Positions 10,478 through 43,931 of a stretch of 64,000 bases of DNA are shown here, one piece after another. The notes below the pieces were generated by a model. It had not been told where the DNA came from and did not search any database. It was given only the letters and a program-made list of their open reading frames with translations. Numbering within the stretch: the stretch's first letter is position 1; every line of letters begins with the position of its first letter. The DNA lies in contig OZ024742.1 in assembly GCA_964016885.1 (NCBI GenBank), positions 21,762,001 through 21,826,000 on the forward strand, read 5' to 3'. Made by a program: the position numbers and the translations under genes. The stretch is from Eledone cirrhosa. Its lineage: Eukaryota.

Positions 10478-10478
10478 T

Positions 10479-10520
<42 letters not shown>

Positions 10521-10647: not shown

Positions 10648-11420
10648 TGGATGGTCTGTATCTCTCGTCCATGAATTCGCCAAGCTTAAGCTTACAGATA
10701 TTATTTATTTGTTTCTTCCTATCTTTCCGTTGCTATACCATGTTTGTTTGTTTGTTTACTTGTCTCATTCGCTTTACGCTATTTCACTTGTCCCAATAGC
10801 TTTATTTAGCTATTGCTCGCACAAGCTGGGGGCATATGATTTTTAAAGCGATGAAATACCAATGAAGGTTGGAAAATCACTGATGAAGGACTATTTTATT
10901 CATATATAACCCATGTGCAACCACGCAGCTTTCAATTCTCATATTTTTATATATATATTTTTCCTCAGCTGCGTTTGTCTCTTTCTTTCTTACTACTTAC
11001 CCCTTCTCTCTGTATCTCTCACCTTGTTTCGCCCCCTCTGTCAGTCACACTTTCTCTCGACTGGCCTCTTCCTCGCACTTCCACTCACTCACTCTCTGCT
11101 TCTCCCCCTCTCACTTCCTCCCGTTTGGCCTGTGTGGGGTCCTTTCTCACTCACACCCCACCCATGTCGGATGGTCTGTATCTCTCGCCCATGAAATTCG
11201 CCCAGCTTAAGCTTACAGATATCATGTACTTGTTTCTTCCTATCTTTCCGTTGCTATACCATGTTTGTTTACTTGTCTCGCTCGCTTTACGCTATTTTAC
11301 TTGTCCCAATAGCTTTATTTAGATATTACTCGCACCAACTAGAGGTATATGATTTTTAAAGCGATGAAATACCAATGAAAGTTTGAAAATCACTGATGAA
11401 GTACTAATTTTATTCATATA
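10648..11420 (+). repeat. ~260-bp direct repeat with ~520-bp period, ending in a decayed HHR-like motif
   Basis: ggatggtctgtatctctcg...aatcaCTGATGAag at 10648-10907 and 11169-11420. The GAAA half is degenerate in copy 1 and interrupted in copy 2. Confidence 0.7.
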
Positions 11421-11423
11421 TAG

Positions 11424-11628
11424 ATATATAGATGAGATTCTACAGGACTAGAACTGTTTCATTCTTTAGAAATCATCATGAATCATCAGGCCAGATTCCT
11501 GCTGATTTCTAAAGAATGAAACAATTCTAGTGCTGTAGAATCTCATCTATATTAAAACTTTTATACTCTGCTATATATTGAGTACCTTACTTACTGTGGT
11601 TACCTCCGATTCAACACGGAATAACTTA

Positions 11629-11630
<2 letters not shown>
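11424..11630 (+). mobile_element. Fold-back element, family A, copy 2 (HHR 11493-11543, core CTGCTGA)
   Basis: Homologous to 3200-3391; inverted arms; ends in (TA)n. Confidence 0.85.
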
Positions 11631-11698
<68 letters not shown>

Positions 11699-12571
11699 GG
11701 TATGTATATACATACATGCATATGTATATACATACATACATATATATAAAGAGGGGGAGATAGAGAGAACAACGAGTGTATAAACATCAACTACCATTAA
11801 CCGAATACGACAAACATACAGACACACACACACACACACACACATACACACACACACACACACACACGCGCGCACAGACACAGACACACACTAATTCTAT
11901 ACAATGTACTGCATTCATTAAAGCGATCTAAAATCTGTACCTAGAAGTGATATCTACTAGTTTTTTTTATAAAATATGCTGCAAAGAATTAAACACATTT
12001 TTTTTTTTTTTTATCAATTTTCTTTATATGGTTTCATACACCATGACATTTTAATCTTATACCATGCACTTCGACTCGTAGATCGTATATAAACGAAAGC
12101 CAAGTGATTATTAGTTTGACAAAGAGTTAATGTCTTTTCTTTCAGAAGAGTTTATAATTGGTTCTAATTTTGACACAGGGACAACAAATTACCCAGTGTA
12201 TTACTGGTACTTTATTTTATCGACCCCGTAAGGCTGAAAGGCAAAGTTAACCTCAGCGGGATTTGAACCCAGAATGGCAAGAATGATTATGTTTTGTTTT
12301 GTCTGTACGTAGAACCGATTTTATAGTGGGGCAGTGGGGGCATTGACCCCAGACCCCCGACCAATAGGGGGCCTTATCGGCTAGATAAATGGGCCTTGGG
12401 ACGGCAAATGGTATTTTGTTTTTTAGACACACCAGAACATTATCTTTAAGAAAATGTACTTCATGTCACTCCTGTGATCAATTCATCGAAATTCTTCTAC
12501 TTTGGTGACATTAGATGATTGTTGTAGAAAATATAGGTATGTTTAATGCAAGAATATGTCATACATATATA

Positions 12572-12897: not shown

Positions 12898-13088
12898 ATT
12901 GGCAGTATCGGTAGAGGGTCGGACGCCATGCTTTTCAGCAAAGAGTTACGGCCCTTTATGGTCTGAGTTCAAATCCCGCCGAGGTTAACTTTGCCTTTCA
13001 TCCTTACGGGGTCGATAAAATAAAGTACTAGTAATACACTGGGATAATTTCTGGCCTTGTGCCAAAAGTAGAAACAATTATTATTATA
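12898..13088 (+). mobile_element. tRNA-derived SINE (family 1)
   Basis: Near-identical to 3591-3782. Confidence 0.85.
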
Positions 13089-13629: not shown

Positions 13630-13677
<48 letters not shown>

Positions 13678-14006
13678 CAGGTACACATACATATATGCAC
13701 GTATCAGTTTAGCGGACGCTTATTATAACGCCGCTTTGTTCGTTTGTAAACAAACTGAACAGCCTGAATTTGTATGCCGTACGGTGTTAAGGCAACCACG
13801 TCACCTTTTTGTTCAACACTGACACAGGAACGATGTACTAGTTTCAAGCTTGTTAGCTATCATCAGCACCGTATACCCATCTGCCAGATAGTTGAACGTT
13901 CGGCATAAAAATTCAGGCTGTTCAGTTTGTTTACAAACGAACAAAGCGGCGTTATAATAAGCGTCCGCTAAACTGATACGTGCATATATGTATGTGTACC
14001 TGTATG

Positions 14007-14039
<33 letters not shown>

Positions 14040-14047
<8 letters not shown>

Positions 14048-14224
14048 CGTAAAATAAGAAAAATTTTTTAAAAAATTTTTTAAAAAAATTTTCTTATTTT
14101 ACGTCTTTTATATTATTGTTCTGCATTCTCCTGCATCGAACCACCTAGGTACTATGACATAACCTGTGTATTTGCTGGCATTGGCGTACATCTGTGCGCT
14201 TATGTTAGTAGATATATTAAATTA

Positions 14225-14228
<4 letters not shown>
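14040..14228 (+). mobile_element. Small fold-back insertion nested in the internal (TA)n of family C
   Basis: Arms ataaaagacgtaaaataagaaaa / ttttcttattttacgtcttttat plus a ~115-bp tail, flanked by (TA)n. Confidence 0.7.
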
Positions 14229-14290
<62 letters not shown>

Positions 14291-14528
14291 CATGCTACTG
14301 TACGTCTGTATACATATATGTATGTACGTATACACACACACTTACATTTAAGTAAGTGCCGTACTAAGAGTGAGAAATGAAATTTCGTTTTCATTTTATT
14401 TCAACTTATCGTTTTCGGTATGCCTGACCGACTTAGCTCACTCGATATGCAAATTAGGCTGCTCAGCCGTTAATTTTCATAAGGAAAGTATATACTTTCG
14501 AACGTTCAACTATCTGGCAGATGGGTAT

Positions 14529-14571
14529 ACGGTGCTGATGATAGCTAACAAGCCTGAAACTAGTACATCGT
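14529..14571 (+). ncRNA. Minimal type I hammerhead (family C); mirror copy at 13830-13872 (-)
   Basis: acggtg-CTGATGA-t agct aaca agc(c/t) t-GAAA-ctag-TA-catcgt; GUA triplet. Confidence 0.85.
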
Positions 14572-14723
14572 TCCTGTGTCAGTGTTGAACAAAAAGGTGA
14601 CGTGGTTGCCTTAACACCGTACGGCATAAAAATTCAGGCTGTTCAGTTTGTTTACAAACGAACAAAGCGGCGTTATAATAAGCGTCCGCTAAACTGATAC
14701 GTGCATATATGTATGTGTACCTG

Positions 14724-14797
<74 letters not shown>

Positions 14798-14911
14798 CAT
14801 GCTGCTGTACGTCTGTATACATATATGTATGTACGTATACACACATACTTACATTTAAGTAAGTGCCGTACTAAGAGTGAGAAATGAAATTTCGTTTTCA
14901 TTTTATTTCAA

Positions 14912-14970
<59 letters not shown>

Positions 14971-14973
<3 letters not shown>

Positions 14974-16530
14974 ATGATATTAAAAAAATGGAAATTATAT
15001 TTATAAAACCATATTTATTTTATTATATATATTTCAAGGGCAACCAAGACAACATTGGTACGCTTTTATCAGATAAAATACAAAGTTTGTTTTATAAATA
15101 GAGACATACCCATGAAAATCATACCTTATCGGTTGGAAATGCACTGGATAGTGGAAATATATTAGGGATTATTCAAACTTATGTGTGAATATTTAAATGA
15201 ATATGTAAATAATTGAAAAACAACCGTTTATTTAAATGACACTGGAGAAAGAGAGGGAGAGAAAAAAAGAGAGAGAGAAAAATAAAAAATATTACGAGAG
15301 AGATAGAGAGAAGAAATTAACAAGAGGATGAATAAAACTCATATAACGTTAATTTGGAGGAATATATTCAATGGTACATGTATTTACGATTAATTAGTTG
15401 TTAAAATTATTTTCTAATATAATATTTACTGTTATAAGTAGATAGAAAAATACATAGTTAGAAGAATAGATTTGAAAAATAAATAAATAAATAAATAAAT
15501 AAATGGATAAATGGATAAATAAATGAATAGATGGGTGTATCATTTCATAGATAATTGTTTTAATGAGTTATGAGGGATATTAATTTTGTATTTAATGTAA
15601 GTAAATATTAAGTTAAATTAAATTAAGTTAACTGAGTTAATAAAAATATTTATATTTATATATTTTAAAATGGGAAGATACGGAAAAAACTCCAGTTTTA
15701 TTTATTTATTCATTAGTATGAGACTATTTTGTCAAAATAAGTATAAATGTTAAAGATATATTTAGCCAGAATTAGTTAATGTTTATAAATCTAATAAAAG
15801 ATATTGAAATATTATTAAAAATGCGGGAAAATGTTTTTAAAACATAATTTATAAGAGACAAGTAATTTTTAAAGAAATAAGTAATTTTAAAAAATAGATA
15901 CAAAAATGAAAGAAATAAAAAATAAAGAATTAAAAATTATTAAGATTAAAATTACAATTAAAATTAAAATTAAATTTAAAATTAAAATTTTAATTTAAAA
16001 AAATTAGAATTATATATGTATATATTTTAAGAAACTTTAAGAAGTGAAATTATAGCAAATGTTATAGATATGATTTAGAGATATCAATATATTAAAACCA
16101 AGTGGATAAAAATGTTATGGAAATAAGTAGAAATATTATAAGTGTAATTATAATTTATATATAGTTCTAAACGTTGAATTCAGGCGATGTCTACAAGAAC
16201 TAAATAAATTCGGCCTTATATTAATAGAGTTCTTACATTTAAGTATGAAAATCCTCAACACACAATTTCCAAACTTGAACCGTTAAGGTATATTTTCCTT
16301 GGTTATGTCAAAATTTATAAAACACACTTCGTATTTTATCTGATGATAGCATACCAAAATGTTGGTACCCTTGAAATATATATAATAGAATAAATATGGT
16401 TTCATAAATATAGTTTCCATTTATTTAATGTCATTGAATATTATACTCCAGAAAAAATCTGTCGAGTGCTCTGAATCAGTTATAAACATTTATATTTGTT
16501 GAATTACCAACAAATTGAATATCCCTTCTG

Positions 16531-16533
<3 letters not shown>
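14971..16533 (+). mobile_element. Family B fold-back, older copy with long AT-rich interior (HHR 16332-16392 +; G8A copy 15016-15080 -)
   Basis: tattttat-CTGATGA-tagcatacca..tggtaccctt-GAAA-tatata-TA-atagaata; both ends homologous to 9654-10178. Confidence 0.75.
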
Positions 16534-16564
<31 letters not shown>

Positions 16565-16570
<6 letters not shown>

Positions 16571-17875
16571 ATGGATAACAAGTTATCCTTATAGGTAATC
16601 CAGTTAGAGGTTGTGAATACTCCGTATTGTGGATAGTTTTAGCGTACGGCGTTGTTTGACTCAACAACAGGTTTCCTTAGGTAGCGAGTTTATGAGTTCT
16701 AGGGAATTCCTATGTAAGTTAATCTTGGAGTAATAATAGTGAAAGAGTGAAGAATAACATGGTCAACAATACAAGAATGGTTTTATTTACAGTATTAACA
16801 ATTGTTTTATTCATTAAGTTGTCTTAAAATTGCTAATCATTTGAAGTTGTGTCACTCAGTTTTAAATACGATATATGCTTAACCAAATCATCAGATAACT
16901 GAAAAGAATTATACATAGCGTTTACAAATTCAAATTACAATATCAGTAATAAAGAAAAAATAAGAAAAAGAAGAAGAAAAAAAAGATAGAGAGAAAAAAA
17001 GAGAAAGAAAGAAAAAAAGAGTAAACAAAAAAAGATAAAGAAAAAGAAATATAAAAGTAGGGTTAATAAATGAATAATAATAAATAAGTTATAGCGAAGA
17101 TGATAAAAATAAATAAAAAATGTTTATATGTGTGTGAAGAAAATGAACATAATATGATTGTTGAAAATAGTTGTGGTGTTGGTGGTTAAAATATAAAGAT
17201 ATGACGGTATAAACATGAAAATATTAAATATATTCATATATGTATTATTTAAATTAATAAATTAATAAATTGGAAGTTATATTAGAAGTGAAGATAATAC
17301 GATAGGTTATATTGTAGGAGATGAAATATATTTAGGGAAAGAAATTAAAAGATAGAAAATGAAAGAGAGAAAATATAATAGGTTATGATGTTGATTCCTT
17401 GACAGTTAATAACAATAATATCAACAATGATGATAATGGGTTATTATAATTGACTCAGGTGGTATAATTTGAATTATGGAATTGTTGGGTCGAATCAAGT
17501 TGGTTTGAAATTATCGAATTTAATTGTTGCTTATGTCTACAGAAAAGTGACTTCAATGTTGCTGTTAAGCAGCATTTTGTTATATTTTAAAATATGGAAT
17601 ATTTTAAAGTCTACAGTGGGACATACCAATTTTGTAGGCCATTGCCCCTGACAATTTAGAGCAGCTAATCCTGTATTCTTGGTTTGTATCTTTAAGCTGC
17701 CAGATTTTATTGGCGAGCGTTCTAGTATTCATTAGTTTACGGTTCTTTGTAGAGTGTCTGTGGACACAACTTCAAGTGATTAGCAATTTTAAGACAACTT
17801 AATTAATGAAACAATTGTTAATGCTGTAAATAAAACCCTTCTTGTACTGTTGACCATGTTATTCTTCACTCTTTC

Positions 17876-17880
<5 letters not shown>
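16565..17880 (-). mobile_element. Decayed Naiad-type PLE 3' end (family G) with inverted arm 17762-17880
   Basis: Minus ~17490-17762 translates HRHSTKNRKLMNTRTLANKIWQLKD...AYKIGMSHCRL...LLNSNIE, similar to the C-terminus of the 21789-24230 ORF. Degenerate long-stem-II HHR at ~16786-16904 (stem III caattg). Related end at 38815-39050. Confidence 0.75.
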
Positions 17881-17959
<79 letters not shown>

Positions 17960-18004
17960 TAAAGAAATAATGAATAAACAATTCCTTATATTAAACAAAA
18001 AAAG

Positions 18005-18159
18005 TTCATTATTTAACGATCGTTTCTAGGGTATATATGTGTTATAATTGGTATGCATATTCAACAGATCTATGTACAAAATTATACAAAATTATACAAA
18101 TTATCAAGATTAAATATACATACCTAACACATATATACGCCGTCTTCAGAAATAATGAA
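18005..18159 (-). ncRNA. Hammerhead with ~115-nt stem II, 3' pLTR copy
   Basis: ttcattattt-CTGAAGA-c ggcgtatatatgtgtta...taacacatatataccc ta-GAAA-cgatcg-TT-aaataatgaa. Confidence 0.82.
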
Positions 18160-18989
18160 GTATATTTATTGATAATAACAACAATTCAAAATATCAGTTC
18201 AAAATTGACCAATGAAAACACAAAGGGTTAAAAGCAGTTCGGTGTGTGTATATACATGTAAAATCCTTACACATATTTTACAATAATGTGTGTATAATTT
18301 GTATGCGCATACTAAAAAGATGGATGCAAACACAAAATTTCAAGGTTAATATCTCTGTAAGCTTAATGCGCTGATAAGATGCGCATTGATACTTATGGAG
18401 TCAAGCATATAAATATATTTTTTCATACTCACACATATCAGTATAATCACACATACATGCGCGTATATGCATAAATATACACATAACCACGAACATACAA
18501 ACACACACACTCCCCCACTCACATTTATATATGTGGATATAAAATCATAAGCACATAGAAATTAAGTCACTCACATAAAACACTGGCACACACATTTCAA
18601 GATCAAGATACAGAAATTAGGTGGGAGGGGGGGAGGGGTCAGTATTCAATTGTCTGAGCAGACTGCCTAATATAAATGTATCTATAAATTAAGAAAAATA
18701 AAAAAATAAAAACAATAAAATATAATAAATATAATATAATGTACATACACATACAGATATATATACACATACATACATGTACGCGCACATAGAGATATTT
18801 ACGCATACACACATACACACATACATATACAGTCATACACACACATACACTTACACGAACATACACATACACATATAAAAAGATATATATATACACACAC
18901 TCACACGCGCAACACATACACACATACACATATATATAAAAAATAGATAATAAAGATATATATCCATATATATATATATACACACACAC

Positions 18990-19032
<43 letters not shown>

Positions 19033-19121
19033 TATACATATACATACACATACATCTAAATATACATACACATACATACACACATACATGTACATACATG
19101 TACATACATATACGCACATCG

Positions 19122-19171
<50 letters not shown>

Positions 19172-19491
19172 TCACATAGACATAAAGATACATACACACA
19201 CAACTTACATACACACGTATATATATATATATATAGATGTACCTTCATACATAGAATTAGATATATAATCATACTTACATATGCACCTACTTATACTCAT
19301 ATAAATAAATACATACGCTTCCATATATGTGTATATACATAAAAAACAATACAACCTCACCAAACTCAGACATACAAATGAAAATAATAATAAAAAGGCA
19401 TATGTATATACATACACACACGCATTAATAGAGAAATATATATATACACACATACATACACATATATATATACATACACACACACATATAT

Positions 19492-19546
<55 letters not shown>

Positions 19547-19550
19547 TAGA

Positions 19551-19589
<39 letters not shown>

Positions 19590-19681
19590 ATATATATCCA
19601 CACACTCATACCACCATAAATACACATACAAACACCCACATATATATATATATATATATATCTACATACACACACGTATAC

Positions 19682-19716
<35 letters not shown>

Positions 19717-20025
19717 CACACACATAAAAAACAGACATGCACATATATATATATATATATATTTCATTACTCTTACATATACACATATTATATATACATA
19801 CACAACCTCACTTATACACATATACACATAAGTTATATTACAATAATAATAAAGAATAATATACATATATATATATACATATACATATATATACATATAT
19901 ATATATACATACATACATACACATACATACATACACATAAATATATACATACATAAATACACACATACGAATAAAGACATATATTCACACATAGACACAT
20001 ATATATATATATATATATATATATC

Positions 20026-20063
<38 letters not shown>

Positions 20064-21213
20064 CACATACACACACACACACACACACAGACACACATAC
20101 ACACTCACATATATATATATATATATGTGTATGTGAGTGTGCGCACATACACATATATACACACACACATACAAACACACACAAACACATACATATGCAT
20201 ACGTGCACACACACACACATATATCACATAGATACGAAGATAAACATATAAATAGAGAGACATACATATATATACACAACACATATACACATACATACAT
20301 ACACGCATATACATATACATACATATATACACATATATATATTCCTATATATACAAGCATACACATACATACACATATATACACATATATACACATATAC
20401 ATACAACACATTCACATACACATACATATATAATACATATATATACATATATATACATACATATGTATGTACAATCATATATACACACACAATCTTACAT
20501 TCATATTTGCATGCTCATATATGTATTTTTATATTTAGATATAAATACCGAAACCTATATAGACACCTACCTACATATATATTCATACATAGACGCTTAC
20601 AAATACAGATGATAATAGTATGGGGGAAAGGGGGGGTTTGGAGAAGGGGATCAAAGTAAATATATGTTTCAAGAAACATATAATATTTTCCGTATCTTAA
20701 TTCAATGTATGTTCTTACATATTTTCAGTGCTAGGAAATACGAAATCTATGCATCTCAAAATAAATAAGTATACCATTAATCATATGTTAACTAAACCAA
20801 AGATAGTCAACATATTGATTTCTAAGGTGTAAATTAGTTAGGTTTATAATATTTGAAGCAGAATTTTGAAGTCAAACAGTAGTAGATTATTAATTACATT
20901 ATAACTAAATAAAAGTTAATAACGTTATGGTATCAATATTAGGAGATGAATTTAGTAATAGGGAAAAGAAACCCAAATAAAAATAAAATAAAGTATTACA
21001 TCGGTAGTAGCATATAAATTATATGTTAACTAAATTAAAAATTATATATTCATTTCAATAGTATACGTTAATTAGTATATGTTAATTAGGTACACAATAC
21101 ATAAAGCAGATATTGTATTTCATCAATAGCATAATATAATTATATGTAAATAGAAATCAAAATTAATACGCATACATATACATATACATACACATACACA
21201 TATACATACATAT

Positions 21214-21252
<39 letters not shown>

Positions 21253-21788
21253 TACATATATACACACATATACATACATACAGATACACATACACAGCAC
21301 ACACATATACATATACATATACATATACATATCTTTTTCAAAAAATTGCACAGAATATATTAACTAGGTATATATCCAAAACACATCCCATTCTATGATT
21401 ACATGACATTCTGCAATTCGTCTGTATAAGGATACTAATTTTAAGCAAATTAAAATTAAAGTTTTAGGTTGATTAAAACTAAAACCAAATAATAAATATA
21501 TTTCCAAAATGTATATTAATTAGGTCTATAATACTAAAAATTCTTTCTCCGTCATTGGATACATGATATTATTTTGTTATATTTTATCTGTAAAAGAATT
21601 ATAATAAAAGGTTTAAATAAATTAAAATTAATCTATAAATTAAATTACTAAGTATATATTAGTAATATTTAAAGGTTTTTCACAATTTATGATTACATAA
21701 TATTTTCTCATCTGTAATAAAATATTAATTAAATTAAATTTATAGGTTAACTAACATTTAAATTAAATTAATTTCTAGAATAATGTTA

Positions 21789-24230
21789 TTAATTAGGTTT
21801 ATAATATTTAAATGTTTTTTTTAATTTATGATTACACGATATAATTAATTCCTGTCGTTTATTTAATAAGATATCCTTAGACTTCATTATTTCAAATAGT
21901 TCTTGGGAACATAATCTACATTCCTTTCTATTATTTTGATAAGGGGTGGCTCTTTTGAGCACACTCCAGGTCAAATCATATTTTATATTCTTATTTTTAT
22001 AACTATTGATTTTTTCTGCTAGAGATGTTGTATTAGCCAGTGCGGCATTTTTAAAACTATGTTTGTGGGTATTAAACCTTGTCTTAAAATTGTTAGAGGT
22101 AGCTCCTATATATGAGCAAATAGAATCTTTAGTTTTAACATTACATTTATAGACTATGTTGTTAACAAGACAATTCCCTTTTAATGGGCAGTTTGTTTTG
22201 TTTCTACAGTTACATCCTTTCGTTAATTCTGTATTTGAGGAGATATTATTGTTAATTTGATGTACTGGTGGTATACTTATGGTTTTCTTACATTTATATG
22301 CATTATATGCACTTATATTTTGTTTTATGTTATTTGTTGTAGAGTATGAGAATTTAACTGTAGACCTATTTAAGATTTGATGGTATTTGTGGTTTGGCGG
22401 GAAGTTTTTCTCAAGGATATAAAAAAATTTTTTAGCAATATTATCCTTAACTTGTAAATTAAAAGGAGCATTATACCAAGTAACTCGTCTATTACGGTTT
22501 CTATGTTGTTTATTATTTTTATTATTTTTATAGGTTGTATCATGATTTTTACTAGGAGGATTAATGTTAATGATCTCACCACAACTATTTTTAGTTATAT
22601 TTGTAGATTTAGGTGTTTTATCTTTTTTATTAGGAGTTTTATTATTAATATTTATTATAGTTGTATGATGAGTAGTTTTTTGAGGGTTACTATACTTTAT
22701 ATTAGAAGATTTAGTATTTTGGGGTATATTGTGGGTGGCATTTAGGTGTGTACTTTTCATTTGGTGTTTGTTGGTAATATTATGCTGTATGCTTTCAGTA
22801 TTTTTAGTAGAAGGTATATACTCTAATCTATTTTTGTGGCCACTTCTATCTAGAGCTTCATTATAAAAGGTCGCATTTTTATCAAATACATCTTGGTTAG
22901 AAGAAAGGTTAGAAATTCTAAGTGATATATTATATGCAAGGTTTTTAAGGATAGATTTAGGGTGATTAGATTGTGAGTGTATGTAATGTAAGTTTTGGTT
23001 AGGTTTATGGTAAGGTTGGTATATACCCGTAGCTAAATCTAAAGTTATATCTAGGAAATTTACTACTTTACTTGTTTTTTCAAAAGTAATATTAAGATTA
23101 TAATAGTCTTTAAGGAAAGTTCTAATATGTTTTTTGTTTTTTTCGATTTCTGAAAGGCTAAGGTTGTTAGAAAGAAGAAGACAGTCATCACGATATAAAC
23201 CACCTTTGAGGTGGGGAAAAGAGGCATTTATGTTGAAAAGGAGAAAGAGGCCCACAAGATCAGTAATTTGGGCGGAATCGCTTGAACCCATAGTAATATC
23301 AAAAAGATTACTGTATGTGTTTCTGGTCCAGTATTCATTCTGAAATTCAATAAGTGTTAGTCTAGCATGTGTAATAATGTTAATGTCATCCGAAGTTAAA
23401 TTAGATCTATTTTTAGCAAATATTAATGCTTTGTTCAGGAGTATGGGTGATATAGAAGAATAGTAATTATCTATATCAAATTGTAGGAAAGAAGCAGAAG
23501 ATTTACACCTAATATTTTTAAACCAATTAATTACCTGGGAGGTGTTTTCCCAGAGTGGTAAAATAACGTATTTTCTTATTTGTGGGATGACTCTATCTAA
23601 AATTTTTTTGCTAATTATTCCAATATCTGATTTGGAGGGACATATAAGTCTAATAGAAGGATTAGAGTTAAAGTTAGATTTGTGATCTTTCAGGTTGAAG
23701 TGTGGTCTTTTCAATGCCAAAGGTTCAGTTCTATCTTCAATGTTTAGTTTTTTTACTATGTTGTGTGTTTTGTTGTTGATGTTGGTGAGTGACACATTAT
23801 TAGATTTTTTATAATTTTTTCTGAGTTCTTTATATATGAACTCATTATAATGTTCAATATCCATATGATACAAGTTACCAGTTTTGTCCGAGTGGACATG
23901 GATTTTTTTAGACTTTTTTAGGTCCAATAGGGTAGAATCAAGGTCCTTTTGAAAGACGGATTTATACTTTTTAAATTTGAGGTGTTTAATTAAATTAAAA
24001 AGGTCTTTCTCGAAGTCTTCAAGTAAAAAGTTGTGTGGTGGATTCTTGTAAGTATTGAAATCATACATATATTTCCGATCTGCTTGTTTAGATTTTCTAT
24101 CGAAGTGGTAGGCTCTCCATCTAACCCTTCTGATAAAATTATTAGTTTTCTGAATCATAAGGAGTAAGAAGTCGTCCTTAGAAGGTATTGGTATGTTTTT
24201 CAAGGAGGTTCCTAAATATTGTTTTTCCAT
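21789..24230 (-). CDS. Naiad-type PLE polyprotein: RT + Cys-rich linker + GIY-YIG endonuclease (~813 aa from ATG at 24230)
   Basis: N-terminal SLKNIPIP..FIRRVRWRAYHF; RT motifs FDIDNYYSSI, DITMGSSDSAQITDLVG, LYRDD, NFLDITL, YIHSQSNHP; CNCRNKTNCPLKGNC-IVY...YIG, CRLC, LLNKRQEL..C.H; uninterrupted. Confidence 0.95.
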   Translation of the reverse strand: MEKQYLGTSLKNIPIPSKDDFLLLMIQKTNNFIRRVRWRAYHFDRKSKQADRKYMYDFNTYKNPPHNFLLEDFEKDLFNLIKHLKFKKYKSVFQKDLDSTLLDLKKSKKIHVHSDKTGNLYHMDIEHYNEFIYKELRKNYKKSNNVSLTNINNKTHNIVKKLNIEDRTEPLALKRPHFNLKDHKSNFNSNPSIRLICPSKSDIGIISKKILDRVIPQIRKYVILPLWENTSQVINWFKNIRCKSSASFLQFDIDNYYSSISPILLNKALIFAKNRSNLTSDDINIITHARLTLIEFQNEYWTRNTYSNLFDITMGSSDSAQITDLVGLFLLFNINASFPHLKGGLYRDDCLLLSNNLSLSEIEKNKKHIRTFLKDYYNLNITFEKTSKVVNFLDITLDLATGIYQPYHKPNQNLHYIHSQSNHPKSILKNLAYNISLRISNLSSNQDVFDKNATFYNEALDRSGHKNRLEYIPSTKNTESIQHNITNKHQMKSTHLNATHNIPQNTKSSNIKYSNPQKTTHHTTIININNKTPNKKDKTPKSTNITKNSCGEIININPPSKNHDTTYKNNKNNKQHRNRNRRVTWYNAPFNLQVKDNIAKKFFYILEKNFPPNHKYHQILNRSTVKFSYSTTNNIKQNISAYNAYKCKKTISIPPVHQINNNISSNTELTKGCNCRNKTNCPLKGNCLVNNIVYKCNVKTKDSICSYIGATSNNFKTRFNTHKHSFKNAALANTTSLAEKINSYKNKNIKYDLTWSVLKRATPYQNNRKECRLCSQELFEIMKSKDILLNKRQELIISCNHKLKKTFKYYKPN

Positions 24231-24573
24231 TGTGATATGGATGATGGACAATTGAAAGAGCTCAACTAAATGTATATGGGTTTACAAAATCATACATATA
24301 TATATGTTTATACATAAATATAAAATTAATACACACATACAGTACAAAAATACGAATATTTCCGTGAAAATAGGAGCAAAATTATGTAGATAAATCTACC
24401 AAGAGTTTACGGTAGTGTCCAATCCGTATGAAGAACTCAATGTATTCCGGATATCATGGAAAGAAGAGATGTAATGAAAATCCACTTTCGGTGAAAGATA
24501 AACGGTATACAGAGTCAAGATAAAATATTAAAGAAATAATGAATAAACAATTCCTTATATTAAACAAAAAAAG

Positions 24574-24728
24574 TTCATTATTTAACGATCGTTTCTAGGG
24601 TATATATGTGTTATAATTGGTATGCATATTCAACAGATCTATGTACAAAATTATACAAAATTATACAAATTATCAAGATTAAATATACATACCTAACACA
24701 TATATACGCCGTCTTCAGAAATAATGAA
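24574..24728 (-). ncRNA. Hammerhead with ~115-nt stem II, 5' pLTR copy
   Basis: Identical to 18005-18159; lies ~345 nt upstream of the ORF ATG. Confidence 0.82.
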
Positions 24729-25558
24729 GTATATTTATTGATAATAACAACAATTCAAAATATCAGTTCAAAATTGACCAATGAAAACACAAAGGGTTAA
24801 AAGCAGTTCGGTGTGTGTATATACATGTAAAATCCTTACACATATTTTACAATAATGTGTGTATAATTTGTATGCGCATACTAAAAAGATGGATGCAAAC
24901 ACAAAATTTCAAGGTTAATATCTCTGTAAGCTTAATGCGCTGATAAGATGCGCATTGATACTTATGGAGTCAAGCATATAAATATATTTTTTCATACTCA
25001 CACATATCAGTATAATCACACATACATGCGCGTATATGCATAAATATACACATAACCACGAACATACAAACACACACACTCCCCCACTCACATTTATATA
25101 TGTGGATATAAAATCATAAGCACATAGAAATTAAGTCACTCACATAAAACACTGGCACACACATTTCAAGATCAAGATACAGAAATTAGGTGGGAGGGGG
25201 GGAGGGGTCAGTATTCAATTGTCTGAGCAGACTGCCTAATATAAATGTATCTATAAATTAAGAAAAATAAAAAAATAAAAACAATAAAATATAATAAATA
25301 TAATATAATGTACATACACATACAGATATATATACACATACATACATGTACGCGCACATAGAGATATTTACGCATACACACATACACACATACATATACA
25401 GTCATACACACACATACACTTACACGAACATACACATACACATATAAAAAGATATATATATACACACACTCACACGCGCAACACATACACACATACACAT
25501 ATATATAAAAAATAGATAATAAAGATATATATCCATATATATATATATACACACACAC

Positions 25559-25599
<41 letters not shown>

Positions 25600-25688
25600 T
25601 ATACATATACATACACATACATCTAAATATACATACACATACATACACACATACATGTACATACATGTACATACATATACGCACATCG

Positions 25689-25736
<48 letters not shown>

Positions 25737-26056
25737 TCACATAGACATAAAGATACATACACACACAACTTACATACACACGTATATATATATATATATA
25801 GATGTACCTTCATACATAGAATTAGATATATAATCATACATACATATGCACCTACTTATACTCATATAAATAAATACATACGCTTCCATATATGTGTATA
25901 TACATAAAAAACAATACAACCTCACCAAACTCAGACATACAAATGAAAATAATAATAAAAAGGCATATGTATATACATACACACACGCATTAATAGAGAA
26001 ATATATATATACACACATACATACACATATATATATACATACACACACACATATAT

Positions 26057-26111
<55 letters not shown>

Positions 26112-26115
26112 TAGA

Positions 26116-26154
<39 letters not shown>

Positions 26155-26244
26155 ATATATATCCACACACTCATACCACCATAAATACACATACAAACAC
26201 CCACATGTATATATATATATATATCTACATACACACACGTATAC

Positions 26245-26279
<35 letters not shown>

Positions 26280-26588
26280 CACACACATAAAAAACAGACA
26301 TGCACATATATATATATATATATATTTCATTACTCTTACATATACACATATTATATATACATACACAACCTCACTTATACACATATACACATAAGTTATA
26401 TTACAATAATAATAAAGAATAATATACATATATATATATACATATACATATATATACATATATATATATACATACATACATACACATACATACATACACA
26501 TAAATATATACATACATAAATACACACATACGAATAAAGACATATATTCACACATAGACACACATATATATATATATATATATATATC

Positions 26589-26626
<38 letters not shown>

Positions 26627-27776
26627 CACATACACACACACACACACACACAGACACACATACACACTCACATATATATATATATATATGTGTATGTGAG
26701 TGTGCGCACATACACATATATACACACACACATACAAACACACACAAACACATACATATGCATACGTGCACACACACACACATATATCACATAGATACGA
26801 AGATAAACATATAAATAGAGAGACATACATATATATACACAACACATATACACATACATACATACACGCATATACATATACATACATATATACACATATA
26901 TATATTCCTATATATACAAGCATACACATACATACACATATATACACATATATACACATATACATACAACACATTCACATACACATACATATATAATACA
27001 TATATATACATATATATACATACATATGTATGTACAATCATATATACACACACAATCTTACATTCATATTTGCATGCTCATATATGTATTTTTATATTTA
27101 GATATAAATACCGAAACCTATATAGACACCTACCTACATATATATTCATACATAGACGCTTACAAATACAGATGATAATAGTATGGGGGAAAGGGGGGGT
27201 TTGGAGAAGGGGATCAAAGTAAATATATGTTTCAAGAAACATATAATATTTTCCGTATCTTAATTCAATGTATGTTCTTACATATTTTCAGTGCTAGGAA
27301 ATACGAAATCTATGCATCTCAAAATAAATAAGTATACCATTAATCATATGTTAACTAAACCAAAGATAGTCAACATATTGATTTCTAAGGTGTAAATTAG
27401 TTAGGTTTATAATATTTGAAGCAGAATTTTGAAGTCAAACAGTAGTAGATTATTAATTACATTATAACTAAATAAAAGTTAATAACGTTATGGTATCAAT
27501 ATTAGGAGATGAATTTAGTAATAGGGAAAAGAAACCCAAATAAAAATAAAATAAAGTATTACATCGGTAGTAGCATATAAATTATATGTTAACTAAATTA
27601 AAAATTATATATTCATTTCAATAGTATACGTTAATTAGTATATGTTAATTAGGTACACAATACATAAAGCAGATATTGTATTTCATCAATAGCATAATAT
27701 AATTATATGCAAATAGAAATCAAAATTAATACGCATACATATACATATACATACACATACACATATACATACATAT

Positions 27777-27815
<39 letters not shown>

Positions 27816-28461
27816 TACATATATACACACATATACATACATACAGATACACATACACAACACACACATATACATATACATATACATATACATATCTTTT
27901 TCAAAAAATTGCACAGAATATATTAACTAGGTATATATCCAAAACACATCCCATTCTATGATTACATGACATTCTGCAATTCGTCTGTATAAGGATACTA
28001 ATTTTAAGCAAATTAAAATTAAAGTTTTAGGTTGATTAAAACTAAAACCAAATAATAAATATATTTCCAAAATGTATATTAATTAGGTCTATAATACTAA
28101 AAATTCTTTCTCCGTCATTGGATACATGATATTATTTTGTTATATTTTATCTGTAAAAGAATTATAATAAGAATTTTTAGTATTATAGACCTAATTAATA
28201 TACATTTTGGAAATATATTTATTATTTGGTTTTAGTTTTAATCAACCTAAAACTTTAATTTTAATTTGCTTAAAATTAGTATCCTTATACAGACGAATTG
28301 CAGAATGTCATGTAATCATAGAATGGGATGTGTTTTGGATATATACCTAGTTAATATATTCTGTGCAATTTTTTGAAAAAGATATGTATATGTATATGTA
28401 TATGTATATGTGTGTGTTGTGTATGTGTATCTGTATGTATGTATATGTGTGTATATATGTA

Positions 28462-28498
<37 letters not shown>

Positions 28499-29650
28499 AT
28501 ATGTATGTATATGTGTATGTGTATGTATATGTATATGTATGCGTATTAATTTTGATTTCTATTTGCATATAATTATATTATGCTATTGATGAAATACAAT
28601 ATCTGCTTTATGTATTGTGTACCTAATTAACATATACTAATTAACGTATACTATTGAAATGAATATATAATTTTTAATTTAGTTAACATATAATTTATAT
28701 GCTACTACCGATGTAATACTTTATTTTATTTTTATTTGGGTTTCTTTTCCCTATTACTAAATTCATCTCCTAATATTGATACCATAACGTTATTAACTTT
28801 TATTTAGTTATAATGTAATTAATAATCTACTACTGTTTGACTTCAAAATTCTGCTTCAAATATTATAAACCTAACTAATTTACACCTTAGAAATCAATAT
28901 GTTGACTATCTTTGGTTTAGTTAACATATGATTAATGGTATACTTATTTATTTTGAGATGCATAGATTTCGTATTTCCTAGCACTGAAAATATGTAAGAA
29001 CATACATTGAATTAAGATACGGAAAATATTATATGTTTCTTGAAACATATATTTACTTTGATCCCCTTCTCCAAACCCCCCCTTTCCCCCATACTATTAT
29101 CATCTGTATTTGTAAGCGTCTATGTATGAATATATATGTAGGTAGGTGTCTATATAGGTTTCGGTATTTATATCTAAATATAAAAATACATATATGAGCA
29201 TGCAAATATGAATGTAAGATTGTGTGTGTATATATGATTGTACATACATATGTATGTATATATATGTATATATATGTATTATATATGTATGTGTATGTGA
29301 ATGTGTTGTATGTATATGTGTATATATGTGTATATATGTGTATGTATGTGTATGCTTGTGTATATATAGGAATATATATATGTGTATATATGTATGTATA
29401 TGTATATGCGTGTATGTATGTATGTGTATATGTGTTGTGTATATATATGTATGTCTCTCTATTTATATGTTTATCTTCGTATCTATGTGATATATGTGTG
29501 TGTGTGTGCACGTATGCATATGTATGTGTTTGTGTGTGTTTGTATGTGTGTGTGTATATATGTGTATGTGCGCACACTCACATACACATATATATATATA
29601 TATATGTGAGTGTGTATGTGTGTCTGTGTGTGTGTGTGTGTGTGTATGTG

Positions 29651-29688
<38 letters not shown>

Positions 29689-29997
29689 GATATATATATA
29701 TATATATATATATATGTGTCTATGTGTGAATATATGTCTTTATTCGTATGTGTGTATTTATGTATGTATATATTTATGTGTATGTATGTATGTGTATGTA
29801 TGTATGTATATATATATATGTATATATATGTATATGTATATATATATATGTATATTATTCTTTATTATTATTGTAATATAACTTATGTGTATATGTGTAT
29901 AAGTGAGGTTGTGTATGTATATATAATATGTGTATATGTAAGAGTAATGAAATATATATATATATATATATGTGCATGTCTGTTTTTTATGTGTGTG

Positions 29998-30032
<35 letters not shown>

Positions 30033-30122
30033 GTATACGTGTGTGTATGTAGATATATATATATATATACATGTGGGTGTTTGTATGTGTATTTATGGTG
30101 GTATGAGTGTGTGGATATATAT

Positions 30123-30161
<39 letters not shown>

Positions 30162-30165
30162 TCTA

Positions 30166-30220
<55 letters not shown>

Positions 30221-30551
30221 ATATATGTGTGTGTGTATGTATATATATATGTGTATGTATGTGTGTATATATATATTTCTCTATTAATGCGTGTGTGTAT
30301 GTATATACATATGCCTTTTTATTATTTTTTTATTATTATTTTCATTTGTATGTCTGAGTTTGGTGAGGTTGTATTGTTTTTTATGTATATACACATATAT
30401 GGAAGCGTATGTATTTATTTATATGAGTATAAGTAGGTGCATATGTATGTATGATTATATATCTAATTCTATGTATGAAAGTACATCTATATATATATAT
30501 ATATACGTGTGTATGTAAGTTGTGTGTGTATGTATCTTTATGTCTATGTGA

Positions 30552-30601
<50 letters not shown>

Positions 30602-30690
30602 CGATGTGCGTATATGTATGTACATGTATGTACATGTATGTGTGTATGTATGTGTATGTATATTTAGATGTATGTGTATGTATATGTATA

Positions 30691-30731
<41 letters not shown>

Positions 30732-31561
30732 GTGTGTGTGTATATATATATATATGGATATATATCTTTATTATCTATTTTTTATATATATGTGTATGTG
30801 TGTATGTGTTGCGCGTGTGAGTGTGTGTATATATATATCTTTTTATATGTGTATGTGTATGTTCGTGTAAGTGTATGTGTGTGTATGACTGTATATGTAT
30901 GTGTGTATGTGTGTATGCGTAAATATCTCTATGTGCGCGTACATGTATGTATGTGTATATATATCTGTATGTGTATGTACATTATATTATATTTATTATA
31001 TTTTATTGTTTTTATTTTTTTATTTTTCTTAATTTATAGATACATTTATATTAGGCAGTCTGCTCAGACAATTGAATACTGACCCCTCCCCCCCTCCCAC
31101 CTAATTTCTGTATCTTGATCTTGAAATGTGTGTGCCAGTGTTTTATGTGAGTGACTTAATTTCTATGTGCTTATGATTTTATATCCACATATATAAATGT
31201 GAGTGGGGGAGTGTGTGTGTTTGTATGTTCGTGGTTATGTGTATATTTATGCATATACGCGCATGTATGTGTGATTATACTGATATGTGTGAGTATGAAA
31301 AAATATATTTATATGCTTGACTCCATAAGTATCAATGCGCATCTTATCAGCGCATTAAGCTTACAGAGATATTAACCTTGAAATTTTGTGTTTGCATCCA
31401 TCTTTTTAGTATGCGCATACAAATTATACACACATTATTGTAAAATATGTGTAAGGATTTTACATGTATATACACACACCGAACTGCTTTTAACCCTTTG
31501 TGTTTTCATTGGTCAATTTTGAACTGATATTTTGAATTGTTGTTATTATCAATAAATATAC

Positions 31562-31716
31562 TTCATTATTTCTGAAGACGGCGTATATATGTGTTAGGTA
31601 TGTATATTTAATCTTGATAATTTGTATAATTTTGTATAATTTTGTACATAGATCTGTTGAATATGCATACCAATTATAACACATATATACCCTAGAAACG
31701 ATCGTTAAATAATGAA
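31562..31716 (+). ncRNA. Hammerhead with ~115-nt stem II, inverted pLTR copy
   Basis: Same motif on the plus strand; 10-bp stem I; GUU triplet. Confidence 0.82.
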
Positions 31717-31901
31717 CTTTTTTTGTTTAATATAAGGAATTGTTTATTCATTATTTCTTTAATATTTTATCTTGACTCTGTATACCGTTTATCTTTCACC
31801 GAAAGTGGATTTTCATTACATCTCTTCTTTCCATGATATCCGGAATACATTGAGTTCTTCATACGGATTGGACACTACCGTAAACTCTTGGTAGATTTAT
31901 C

Positions 31902-31974
<73 letters not shown>

Positions 31975-39849: not shown

Positions 39850-39881
<32 letters not shown>

Positions 39882-40740
39882 AATTAATAAAAACAATGAA
39901 ATAAAAACAAAGAACAAGTTCCTTATATTAAAAGATTTTTACGATCGTTTCTAGGATGTATATGTGTGTTGGTATGTATATAATATGTAAAAATATTACA
40001 AATTATCAGAGGAAATATACATACCTTCACATATACATGCTGTCTTCAGAAATGATGAGATTTTTTTATTGAAAAAAAACAAAAACAACAAAGATTTAAT
40101 ATAAAAGGTCTGTTTGGGAACAGGTTTTGAATTGACCAATAGAAAAGTAGTTAGAGGTCAAGTTGATAGAATAGTGGTAGTAGAAATTTAATTTAGGGGT
40201 AGAGGAGTCAGACTTATGTTTTGAATGATAAGAATACTTTGAATGAAAAGAATACTTTGGGGATGAAAAGTAGTCAAGCCAGTGAAGGGTACATGAAAAT
40301 TTGATGTTATTAATGAATAATGTTAGAAACGAAGGAAAATAAAATTTTAGGGTAAGGGTATTAGTGAGAAATATCAATCTTATTTAAACCACAAGGAATC
40401 TAGATCTATAATAAGAAATTAAATTAATTGATAGGTATACTTATAGGGATAAATTTATATTATTTATATGAATGGGATAAATAAGAATTAGATGTTATTA
40501 AAAACGAAGGAAAGTAAAAATTTGGGATAAGGGAAGTAGTGAAAAATACCAATCTTATATAAACTACAAGGAAATTAAATTAATTTATAGGTAAACTTTT
40601 AGGTATTAATTTTAGGAAAAGAGAGCAGTAAAAGGGAAATTAAATTATGAAGTTACTCTTTAGTAAAATACTAATTATAGGTTAACTAAACTAATAAAAC
40701 TAATTATAATAATATGTAAAATATAAGTGTCAGGTGTATA

Positions 40741-41169
40741 TTAATTATGTTTATAATATTTGATGGTTCTTCTAATTCTATGATTGCAAGATATAATTAA
40801 TTCCTGTCGCTTATTTAATAGGATATCCTTAGATTTCATGATTTCACAAAGTTCCTGGGAGCATAACCTACAATTGTATCTATTGTTTTGGTAAGGAGTG
40901 ACCCTTTTGAGCACACTCCAGGTCAGGTTGTAATTGATATCCTTCTTTCTATAATTATTAATTGTTTCAGCCAAGGATTTTATATTAGCTAATGCGGCAT
41001 TTTTAAAACTATGTTTGTGTGTATTAAATCTTACTTTAAATTGGTTAGACGTAGCTCCTATATATGAATAAGTGGAGTCCTTAGTGCTAATTTTACATTT
41101 ATAGACTATGTTATTAATAAGACAATTTCCCTTTAATGGGCAATTTCTTTTGATTCTACAGTTACAATT
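40741..41169 (-). pseudogene. Naiad GIY-YIG domain fragment (open frame, 5'-truncated)
   Basis: NCNCRIKRNCPLKGNCLINNIVYKC...YIGATSNQFKVRFNTHKHSF...CRLCSQEL..LLNKRQELIISCNH; very similar to the C-terminus of the 21789 ORF. Confidence 0.92.
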
Positions 41170-41529
41170 TAATTTCTTCTTATAGATCTAGATTCCTTGT
41201 GGTTTAAATAAGATTGATATTTCTCACTAATAACCTTACCCTAAAATTTTATTTTCCTTCGTTTTTAACATTATTCTTTAATAAAATCAAATTTTCATGT
41301 ACCCTTCATTGGCTTGACCTCTTTTCATCCCCAAAGTATTCTTTTGATTCAAAGTATTCTTTTCATTCAAAACATAAGTCTGCACTCCTCTACCCCTAAA
41401 TTAAATTTCCACTACCACTATTCTATCAACTTGACCTCTAATTACTTTTCTATTGGTCAATTCAAAACCTGTTTCCAAACAGACCTTTTATATTAAATCT
41501 ATGTTGGGTTTTTTTTCAATAAAAAAATC

Positions 41530-41664
41530 TCATCATTTCTGAAGACAGCATGTATATGTGAAGGTATGTATATTTCCTCTGATAATTTGTAATATTTTTA
41601 CATACATCATATGATATACATACCAACACACATATACATCCTAGAAACGATCGTAAAATGATGA
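41530..41664 (+). ncRNA. Hammerhead with long stem II (Naiad subfamily 2); mirror copy ~39935-40059 has a damaged stem I
   Basis: tcatcattt-CTGAAGA-cagcatgtatatgtg...cacatatacatccta-GAAA-cgatcg-TA-aaatgatga. Confidence 0.85.
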
Positions 41665-41849
41665 ATTTTTTAATATAAGGAACTTTTTCTTTGTTTTTAT
41701 TTCATTGTTTTTATTAATTTATCTTGACTCTGTTTTCCTATGATTTCATCGAAACTTTTTGAATGCATCTTCTCTTTTCATGACATTTGGATTACATTGA
41801 GTTCTTCATACGGATTAGACACTACCGTATATTTTGGTAGATTTATCTA

Positions 41850-41906
<57 letters not shown>

Positions 41907-42627: not shown

Positions 42628-42702
<75 letters not shown>

Positions 42703-42707
<5 letters not shown>

Positions 42708-43927
42708 TATGTATACGTACATACATATATGTATACAGACGTACAGTAGTATGTATATATATTTACATACATGCACACATATATATATATATATGTACGT
42801 ATGGATTCACCGAACATTTATTATAATGCTCGGTGTGTTTGTAAACAAACATCCCGAATTAAGCCGTACAGTGTCTAGCAACCATCGTTGCTCATTTGTT
42901 CAACCCTGACAAAGGTACGCTGTACTCGTTTCAAGCTTATTAGCAACGTATACCTTCCTGCCAGATGATTGAACGTCTGAAAGTATATACTTTCCTTATG
43001 CATATTAACGGCTGAGCAGCCTAATTTGCATATCGTTTCATTTTTTCCGTTTATCGTTTTCTGTACCTCGTCGATTAACTCACTCGATATGCAAATTAGG
43101 CTGCTCATCCGTTAATATGCATAAGGAAAGTATATATTTCAGACGTTCAATCATCTGACAGGAAGGTATACGTTGCTGACGATAACTAATAAGCTTGAAA
43201 CTAGTACAGCGTTCCTTTGTCAGGGTTGACCAAATGAGCAACGATGGTTGCTAGACACTGTACGGCTTAATTCGGGATGTTTGTTAACAAACACACCGAG
43301 CATTATAATAAATGTTCGGTGAATCCATACGTACATATATATATATATATATGTGTGCATCTATGTATATATATATATACATACTACTGTACGTCTGTAT
43401 ACATAAATGTATGTACGTATACATACTTATATTTAAGTAACAGCCGTACTAAGAGTGAGAAATGAAATTTCGTTTCATTTTTTCCGTTTATCGTTTTCGG
43501 TACCCCGGCCGATTAACTCACTCGATATGCAAATTAGGCTGCTCAGCCGTTAATATGCATAAGGAAAGTATATACTTTCAGACGTTCAATCATCTGGCAA
43601 GAAGGTACACGTTGCAGACGATAGCTAATAAGCTTGAAACTAGTACAGCGTTCCTTTGTCAGGGTTGAACATATGAGCAAGCAACGATGGTAGCTAGACA
43701 CTGACGGCTTAATTCGGGATGTTTGTTTACAAACACACCGAGCATTATAATAAATGTTCGGTGAATCCATACGTACATATATATATATATATATGTGTGC
43801 ATCTATGTATATATATATATACATACTACTGTACGTCTGTATACATATATGTATGTACGTATACATACTTATATTTAAGTAACAGCCGTACAAAGAGTGA
43901 GAAATGAAATTTCGTTTCATTTTTTCC

Positions 43928-43931
<4 letters not shown>
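42703..43931 (+). mobile_element. Family C retrozyme-like element, second subfamily: inverted arm + two tandem monomers
   Basis: Inverted arm 42703-43035; monomers 43053-43489 (437 bp) and 43490-43931 (442 bp); (TA)n flanks. Confidence 0.88.
43170..43212 (+). ncRNA. Minimal hammerhead (family C); second copy 43609-43651 has CAGACGA
   Basis: acgttg-CTGACGA-taactaataagctt-GAAA-ctag-TA-cagcgt. Confidence 0.8.

Follow-up and report, generated by a model that had tools for sequence, protein, structure and literature searches.

The locus considered here raises the question of whether a retrotransposon that inserts into (TA)n tracts, and that carries TA-rich microsatellites in its own 3' untranslated region (UTR), can seed new targets for its own family and thereby help explain the microsatellite load of the genome, as the first-pass annotation of the window (the whole stretch of 64,000 nt that was analysed) had proposed. 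The interpretation that we favour, with moderate confidence, is that an intact Penelope-like element (PLE) of the Hydra clade has inserted into (TA)n together with some 2 kb of TA/TG repeats, which are likely to be copied as passive cargo, and that it probably adds little to the load of long TA tracts. If the long UTR proves to be dispersed, the element would clearly exemplify an autonomous retrotransposon that carries the repeat it targets, and the resulting loop could be measured by comparing tract lengths and nested insertions in cargo of known age with the background.

Identity of the element

The element contains an intact ORF (21789..24230, minus strand) for a protein of 813 aa in which a PLE reverse transcriptase and a GIY-YIG-type endonuclease are combined in a single frame, with the endonuclease core at the C-terminus. 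No Pfam-A family was matched by the protein, and the assignment of the two domains is therefore based on motifs and homologues. The motifs are RWR at 37, DKT at 115, YRDD at 346, CxCX5C at 673, IVY..YIG at 692-709, CxxC at 771 and CxH at 799; RWR is a conservative variant of RWK (RW[KR] occurs in 72 of 118 homologues), and DKT stands in place of DKG, as it does in 96 of the 118. These 118 homologues are of near-full length and are 31-48% identical to the protein. Neither the exact protein nor a close relative was found among the proteins searched, the best near-length match being at 48% and the best of 79 shorter matches at 56%; the named matches over both sets come from Octopus sinensis (48%) and Stylophora pistillata (34%). 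An Asn/Lys/Thr-rich low-complexity stretch of about 90 aa, encoded at 22544-22818, is missing from many homologues, which are about 700 aa long.

A pattern scan detected no CX2-5CxxC finger in the protein, and a CCHH motif is absent as judged by eye from the positions of Cys and His. The traits given for the Hydra clade in the consulted parts of PMC8557442 are RWK for GxKF/Y, the replacement of DKG by DKT, a CxCX5C linker, CxxC and CxH near the end, a C-terminal GIY-YIG domain, no CCHH and no CX2-5CxxC, a canonical hammerhead in the pseudo-LTR (pLTR), and insertion into (TA)n. Judged by its protein motifs, its hammerhead motif and its (TA)n flanks, the element is classified here as a Hydra-clade PLE. 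A Naiad/Chlamys PLE, Naiad having been the first candidate, was rejected on domain order, the endonuclease being C-terminal and not N-terminal, and also because a hammerhead motif occurs.

The type I hammerhead ribozyme motif, which has an extended stem II of 116 nt, lies at 18005..18159 on the minus strand and is supported by a motif scan, a fold z-score of -6.7 (with -5.8 in a second fold of the motif) and two compensatory pairs in the long stem II in comparison with the relative at 39879..41851 described below. Further copies were located by the motif scan at 24574-24728 (minus) and 31562-31716 (plus), and the core, a 10-bp stem I and a minimal stem III are present in all three. An Rfam search of 13000-45000 returned, among the best 150 of 238 matches, only microsatellite-like miRNA matches below the gathering score, and no hammerhead was found by Rfam in 24230-25000. 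We infer that the unit is transcribed and that the motif is self-cleaving. A donor-like site, AG/GTATGT, is found within stem II at 24692, at 18123 (minus) and at 40024 (minus), and is thus kept in both Hydra families of the window; the site in the upstream copy could be the start of an intron running from the pLTR to the 5' UTR, as in Penelope and Chlamys-3.

Layout of the insertion

The insertion totals 13,957 nt, with a unit of 6,569 nt from one hammerhead to the next, and lies between (TA)37 with one interruption on the left (17880..17953) and (TA)33 on the right (31905..31971). The order on the minus strand is a first copy of the UTR (B), a 137-nt tail which opens the 5' UTR, the ORF, and a second copy of the UTR (A); an inverted copy (C) adjoins B on the side away from the ORF. 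Copy A (17951..21788, minus) is the true 3' UTR; from the stop codon to the short 3' end (21788 to 17951) it measures 3,838 nt, which bears out the TA/TG-rich 3' UTR of about 3.8 kb described in the first-pass annotation, and it ends without a tail, directly in (TA)n. Copy B (24383..28170, minus) is the upstream pLTR, a 5'-truncated tandem copy consisting of UTR (24520-28170) followed by the 137-nt tail and start of the 5' UTR (24519-24383). Copy C (28169..31907, plus) is likewise 5'-truncated and consists of UTR (28169-31770) and a 137-nt tail which extends to 31907 and is followed by (TA)n. The tail is one-sided, present in B and C and absent from the end of A, and B and C together form a near-perfect palindrome of 7.5 kb whose junction is asymmetric, C beginning 62 nt deeper into the UTR than B.

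The UTR copies are 99.67% (A/B) and 99.31% (A/C) identical, and a comparison of all three reveals substitutions at 7 sites along with 6 small indels, 5 of the 6 indels being one dinucleotide unit. Each copy has private changes; those private to A account for 5 of the 7 substitutions, although the numbers are small and B and C may be homogenised. The intact element is likely to be recent, and if the octopus rate of 0.0036 per site per My used in PMC13282606 applies, and only then, the divergence of the copies would correspond to an age of about 0.1-0.2 My.

A partial tandem, an inverted copy and a one-sided tail together make up the layout described for PLEs in the literature consulted, and the three copies are probably the product of one retrotransposition event in a tandem-plus-inverted arrangement. 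The claim that the microsatellites are copied three times is thus correct as to number, the copies being 99.3-99.7% identical, but all three lie in one compound insertion and not at three loci; because one event probably built all of them, dispersal to other loci is not established.

The relative at 39879..41851 (minus) is informative here. It is a 5'-truncated element with the last 141 codons, a UTR of 855 nt, and an inverted copy at 41166-41722 with hammerhead and tail. It is 79% identical to the long-UTR element over the last 141 aa, its nucleotide identity to that element is 83%, its two 3' ends are at positions aligned with those of the long-UTR element, its tail is 84% identical, and its hammerhead motif is present in the inverted copy, the main copy being without one arm of stem I. 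No (TA)5+ tract occurs in its 855-nt UTR; it has likewise inserted into (TA)n, without any repeat cargo. On these identities it is taken to represent a sister family rather than a further copy of the long-UTR one, and the earlier description of a similar protein end, hammerhead and tail, combined with a UTR of about 0.86 kb free of the tracts, is accurate.

It could be supposed instead that the three copies arose by local duplication of DNA, or through a fold-back in the assembly, and that the long UTR never moved, since all copies are at one locus and a 7.5-kb palindrome is the kind of structure known to trouble assemblies, according to the sources consulted. This is very improbable, given that C is offset by 62 nt from B and has a tail end which matches that of the relative, that it runs into (TA)n and unique DNA and does not mirror the ORF, that each copy has private changes, and that the relative has an identical layout. 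Since a sister family shares the same 3' ends at aligned positions as well as the tail, retrotransposition appears by far the more probable source of the three-copy structure when set against local duplication or a fold-back.

Composition of the 3' UTR

From the stop codon onward, all on the minus strand, the 3' UTR begins with a proximal segment (21336..21788) that contains a decayed duplicate of the end of the ORF and the start of the UTR. There follow a short block of microsatellite (block 2, 21171..21335, 165 nt of TA/TG with one (TA)13), an AT-rich spacer (20536..21170), and the main block (block 1, 18740..20535), which comprises 1,796 nt of compound TA/TG/TATG repeats with 20 (TA)5+ tracts, the longest of 20 units. 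Beyond the main block lies a non-repetitive segment (18230..18739) for which no homologue was detected outside the insertion. The repeat-rich part of the UTR, 18740-20535 plus 21171-21335, thus totals about 1.96 kb in two blocks and not the single compound microsatellite of about 2.5 kb that had been claimed. Perfect simple repeats make up 21% of the bases in 18430-21330, and there are none in 20536-21170. Each copy has 21 (TA)5+ tracts, compared with 0.135 on average, and never more than 2, in 200 mononucleotide shuffles of the span.

The repeats come after the stop codon and before the hammerhead motif, within what would be the transcribed unit. Since they lie between successive hammerheads, any 6,569-nt RNA monomer cut at both (in B and in A) would include them. 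A practical consequence for annotation is that repeat maskers would fragment a Hydra unit of 6.6 kb whose UTR is of low complexity, so that neither its full length nor the source of the repeats would be apparent.

Origin of the long UTR

Part of the long UTR can be traced to the element. The proximal UTR repeats the end of the ORF with a score of 109, which none of 200 and none of 300 shuffles reached. The spacer resembles both the region of the ORF end (score 125, 0/300 shuffles) and the UTR of the relative (score 106, 0/300 shuffles, with one unrelated AT-rich control at 96), and it has a 29/32-nt match to the end of the relative's ORF (40763-40732). Spacers such as 20540-21120, which the first-pass annotation had taken to be unique and had offered as search probes, are in this respect element-derived, and part of the UTR is, on the evidence of these alignments, old self-duplicated element sequence. 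The proximal UTR gave no significant alignment with the relative (13/200 shuffles reach the score), and for the main block together with 18230-18739 no homologue was found there (23/200 shuffles reach the score); some 2.5 kb of the UTR (20740-18230) is without an equivalent in that element. Growth of the repeats in place is therefore not established by this comparison, and capture fits it equally. Within block 1, a few 10-12-mers are shared, but no convincing alignment points to a higher-order repeat.

Two further properties concern the strand on which the UTR would be transcribed, and both tests were selected post hoc, after inspection of the sequence. The first is repeat polarity: G exceeds C on the sense strand in 32 of the 34 informative runs (of 36), and TATGTA occurs 73 times in sense against 6 occurrences of TACATA in the UTR, compared with 84 and 81 outside it, with a simulated P of 0.003-0.037 according to the local correlation assumed. 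The second is that no AATAAA or ATTAAA occurs on the sense strand for about 3.6 kb upstream of the hammerhead (5.9 expected, P 0.003), while 0 of 146 overlapping control windows are free of these signals; the single AATAAA of the UTR is immediately upstream of the hammerhead, as it is in the relative. The ORF has six sense AATAAA, which weakens the poly(A) argument. Introns likewise show a T/G bias on one strand and few sense poly(A) signals. Polarity and the lack of poly(A) signals fit a long residence in a transcript, whether the element's own or that of a captured intron.

It is possible, though not probable, that template switch or read-through captured the 2.5-kb segment 20740-18230 in one step, out of either a host pre-mRNA (an intron) or the DNA next to an insertion, and that it has been carried since, in which case the repeats would still be cargo but would not have grown within the element. 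The lack of homology to the relative, the strand bias with its lack of sense poly(A) signals, and the presence of similar compound tracts elsewhere in the window outside these elements all agree with such a capture, and the mobilisation by PLEs of host genes that contain introns has been reported (PMC8557442, as consulted in part). However, block 2 shares the polarity of block 1 despite the element-derived spacer between them, no leftover hammerhead is found upstream of the block as would be expected from read-through, and similar stretches in other parts of the window reach 390 nt at most. The account that we prefer is that the TA/TG repeats are likely to have grown within the lineage of the element and to have been copied as passive cargo.

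A further proposal treats the main block as an intron that splicing would remove from the mRNA but that the unspliced template would retain. Donor-like and acceptor-like sites were called with splice-site consensus patterns, and a donor-like site at 20570 and the strongest acceptor-like site of the UTR, at 18682, bracket block 1. PLEs are also known to retain introns, in the sources consulted, but the introns described there are located in 5' UTRs. The UTR has 19 donor-like sites, about 0.4 acceptors of such strength are expected per 3.8 kb, and the two sites were found after the fact, so that their bracketing of the block is within chance; we regard a retained intron as improbable, and continue to prefer growth within the element lineage.

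A different explanation of the one-strand bias, which is equally improbable, is that the TA-to-TG change may be the trace of A-to-I editing in (UA)n RNA that had paired with itself, made permanent when the RNA was reverse-transcribed. Such editing would also blunt the targets. A CA-rich stretch at 2478-2668, which follows the ORF of another PLE and has a polarity opposite to that of the Hydra UTR, speaks against editing as a general rule. This other PLE occupies part of 1-2900, with a GIY-YIG ORF at 1616-2473 and an inverted repeat (1-327 / 2111-1786).

Contribution to the microsatellite load

That (TA)n is the target of the element's own family is well founded, since the element has (TA)n on both sides and since, in the consulted text of PMC8557442, 26 of 27 listed Hydra families prefer to insert there. 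The proposal that it seeds new TA tracts holds to the extent that the cargo would lie inside the transcribed unit, but there is one insertion, with no match elsewhere in the window: non-repeat words of the spacer and block were found elsewhere only in the relative and in low-complexity matches. Each jump would scatter short TA tracts.

The effect on the genome's load of long TA tracts is probably small. When the insertion is compared with the rest of the window, leaving out a 29-nt satellite (57362-64000; 229 copies, 84% matches, continuing past the window end), it contains 25 (TA)10+ tracts, a density of 1.79 per kb compared with 1.11 in the remainder, but the relation is reversed for longer tracts: 0.72 against 0.90 per kb at 15 or more units, 2 tracts (0.14 per kb) against 26 (0.60 per kb) at 20 or more, and 0 against 19 at 25 or more. 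Bases in (TA)10+ tracts are 5.2% of the total inside and 5.0% outside, and with 2 against 26 tracts of 20 or more units the suggested large share in the microsatellite load is not supported. The re-targeting of cargo, for which nested insertions in the UTR had been put forward as the measure, also finds no support here, as 0 of the 25 (TA)10+ tracts of this young insertion are interrupted. The median length is 13 units for the cargo tracts of copy A and 24 units for 24 hand-picked insertion-flank tracts, although flank tracts may have grown after insertion and their length need not equal the required target length.

A strong feedback, in which the UTR has spread widely, the (TA)n of the cargo is regularly re-targeted and a notable part of the microsatellite load results, is compatible with our preferred interpretation in the sense that the two are not mutually exclusive. 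One event laid down 25 (TA)10+ tracts at the elevated density given above, the ORF is intact and the copies are near-identical, and a small hammerhead family in the same window (S, below) has an internal (TA)n at two loci, in one of which a copy is interrupted by a palindrome-plus-tail insert. Strong feedback is nevertheless unlikely: none of the cargo tracts has been hit, the insertion is below background at 15, 20 and 25 or more units, the other compound tracts of the window share exact non-repeat words of at most 14 nt with the block, and the relative has inserted into (TA)n without cargo. It is similarly doubtful that an active Hydra subfamily has amplified the 6.6-kb unit genome-wide, with cargo TA lengthening until its own family and sister families can land in it, giving self-renewing pile-ups. 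For the long-UTR element a self-feeding seeding loop is plausible but probably minor, and the re-use of flanking (TA)n tracts looks like the main loop; by annotation, 27 of the 48 tracts beyond the insertion are situated within TA-inserted elements or border on them.

Internal TA tracts and pile-ups

The sole case of re-targeting in the window belongs to the S family, a small non-coding hammerhead family with retrozyme-like units, and not to the long-UTR family. Its locus S1 (13632..14916, plus; unit 507 nt) has an internal (TA)33 in which one copy carries a 184-nt insert (14043-14226), and its locus S2 (42698..43931, plus; unit 442 nt) has a TA tract of lesser length at the homologous position inside its unit and no insert; the two loci are 83% and 91% identical on the two sides of the tract. 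The insert is a palindrome with a one-sided tail and has no homologue within the window; its shape, which is common to other TA-bounded inserts in the window, suggests a PLE origin. The inverted copy of S1 ends in the internal TA tract, and internal TA may thus also truncate elements.

The S1 locus is the first member of an unbroken chain of TA-bounded inserts, placed end to end over 18.3 kb (13632-31971), in which it is followed by the inserts at 14972-16532 (hammerhead 16332-16392) and 16571-17879 and by the Hydra element; the chain may be a pile-up within one original TA tract. A decayed relative of the 16571-17879 element occurs at 37840-39045, and upstream of it are an (AAAT)40 tract and a copy of a dispersed repeat, possibly within its UTR. 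A second pile-up (8942-10517) consists of short inserts separated by TA tracts, with hammerhead motifs at 9288-9219, 9848-9784 and 10365-10300 that are related to each other and resemble the motif at 16332. Short palindromes, most with a one-sided tail, also occur beside TA tracts at 3200-3391, 11416-11630, 47579-47933, 54765-55111 and 52787-52946, and two of these families recur at separate loci. The window further contains a dispersed SINE-like repeat with copies 76-91% identical (3591-3782, 6324-7138, 7845-8180, 12154-12281, 12898-13083, 38324-38512) and a LINE-type reverse transcriptase fragment (44895-45437; Pfam RVT_1, E 5e-21).

Proposed mechanism

In the mechanism that we propose, a 6,569-nt RNA cut at successive hammerheads would serve as the template, the endonuclease would nick (TA)n, and reverse transcription would build the three-copy structure in one event; a single-event origin would imply that another locus had supplied the long UTR as donor. 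Old self-duplication of the ORF-end region, together with slippage, would have swelled the UTR, and this may have been tolerated because the sequence is non-coding and continued to lack poly(A) signals. It is probable that tracts in the cargo can turn into targets after they have lengthened, as in the neighbouring S family, a step not seen in the long-UTR family. The more evident feedback is a simpler one, in which an insertion ends up with long (TA)n to its left and right and those flanks are hit again.

Comparison with known systems

The following comparisons draw on sources consulted in part. Insertion into (TA)n or other microsatellites is shared with MuTAnT, Micron, TAFT and the Naiad and Neptune PLEs, which are DNA transposons or belong to other PLE clades and for which no multi-kb repeat cargo is described in those sources. 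Microsatellites are likewise carried or generated by DINE-1/Helentrons, lepidopteran MINEs, Alu and BARE-1 (PMC4067079, PMC9659126, PMC4486113), so that transposon-borne microsatellites are already known and the principle is not new; these elements, however, are mostly short and non-autonomous with one small tract, and the repeat is not described there as their own target. Among the open-access papers searched, considered by title and start of abstract, no description of a PLE seeding its own target was found.

The closest parallels among PLEs come from the supplement of PMC8557442: PLE-X1_cBra prefers (CA)n targets and, about 1.5 kb upstream of its hammerhead, contains a tract of (CA)n and extended T-rich runs, while the 3' part includes a compound CA/TA tract in PLE-X2_cBra and a long (CA)n in Physarum-Pp2. 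They differ from the present element in clade and host and in that their tracts are tens to a few hundred bases and not 2 kb, and the consulted parts of that paper do not discuss the tracts as seeding targets. The non-LTR retrozymes (bioRxiv 10.64898/2026.07.22.740005) resemble the S family in their short tandem unit, type I hammerhead and PLE-like layout, a likeness that does not concern the autonomous Hydra element. The O. vulgaris repeat library deposited on Zenodo by PMC13282606 might already include the long-UTR family.

With the Hydra clade, including Hydra-1_Obim (PMC8557442), which is a different family as judged by eye, the element shares its motifs, type I hammerhead, (TA)n insertion, and pLTR with inverted copy. 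It differs in its stem II region, which is 116 nt as against short stems, and in its tail of 137 nt; PLE-type insert tails in the window are about 60-160 nt, as against the 30-40 bp described for PLEs. Its 3' UTR of 3.8 kb compares with about 0.2-0.4 kb in six Hydra consensi, as estimated by eye. Hydra elements are generally shorter than 3 kb, the 27 families listed spanning 1,080-3,045 bp and the 14 complete ones 2,084-2,729 bp (Craig et al. 2021, PMC8557442), and the 6,569-nt unit, at 2.4 times the length of the longest complete published element, is a strong size outlier.
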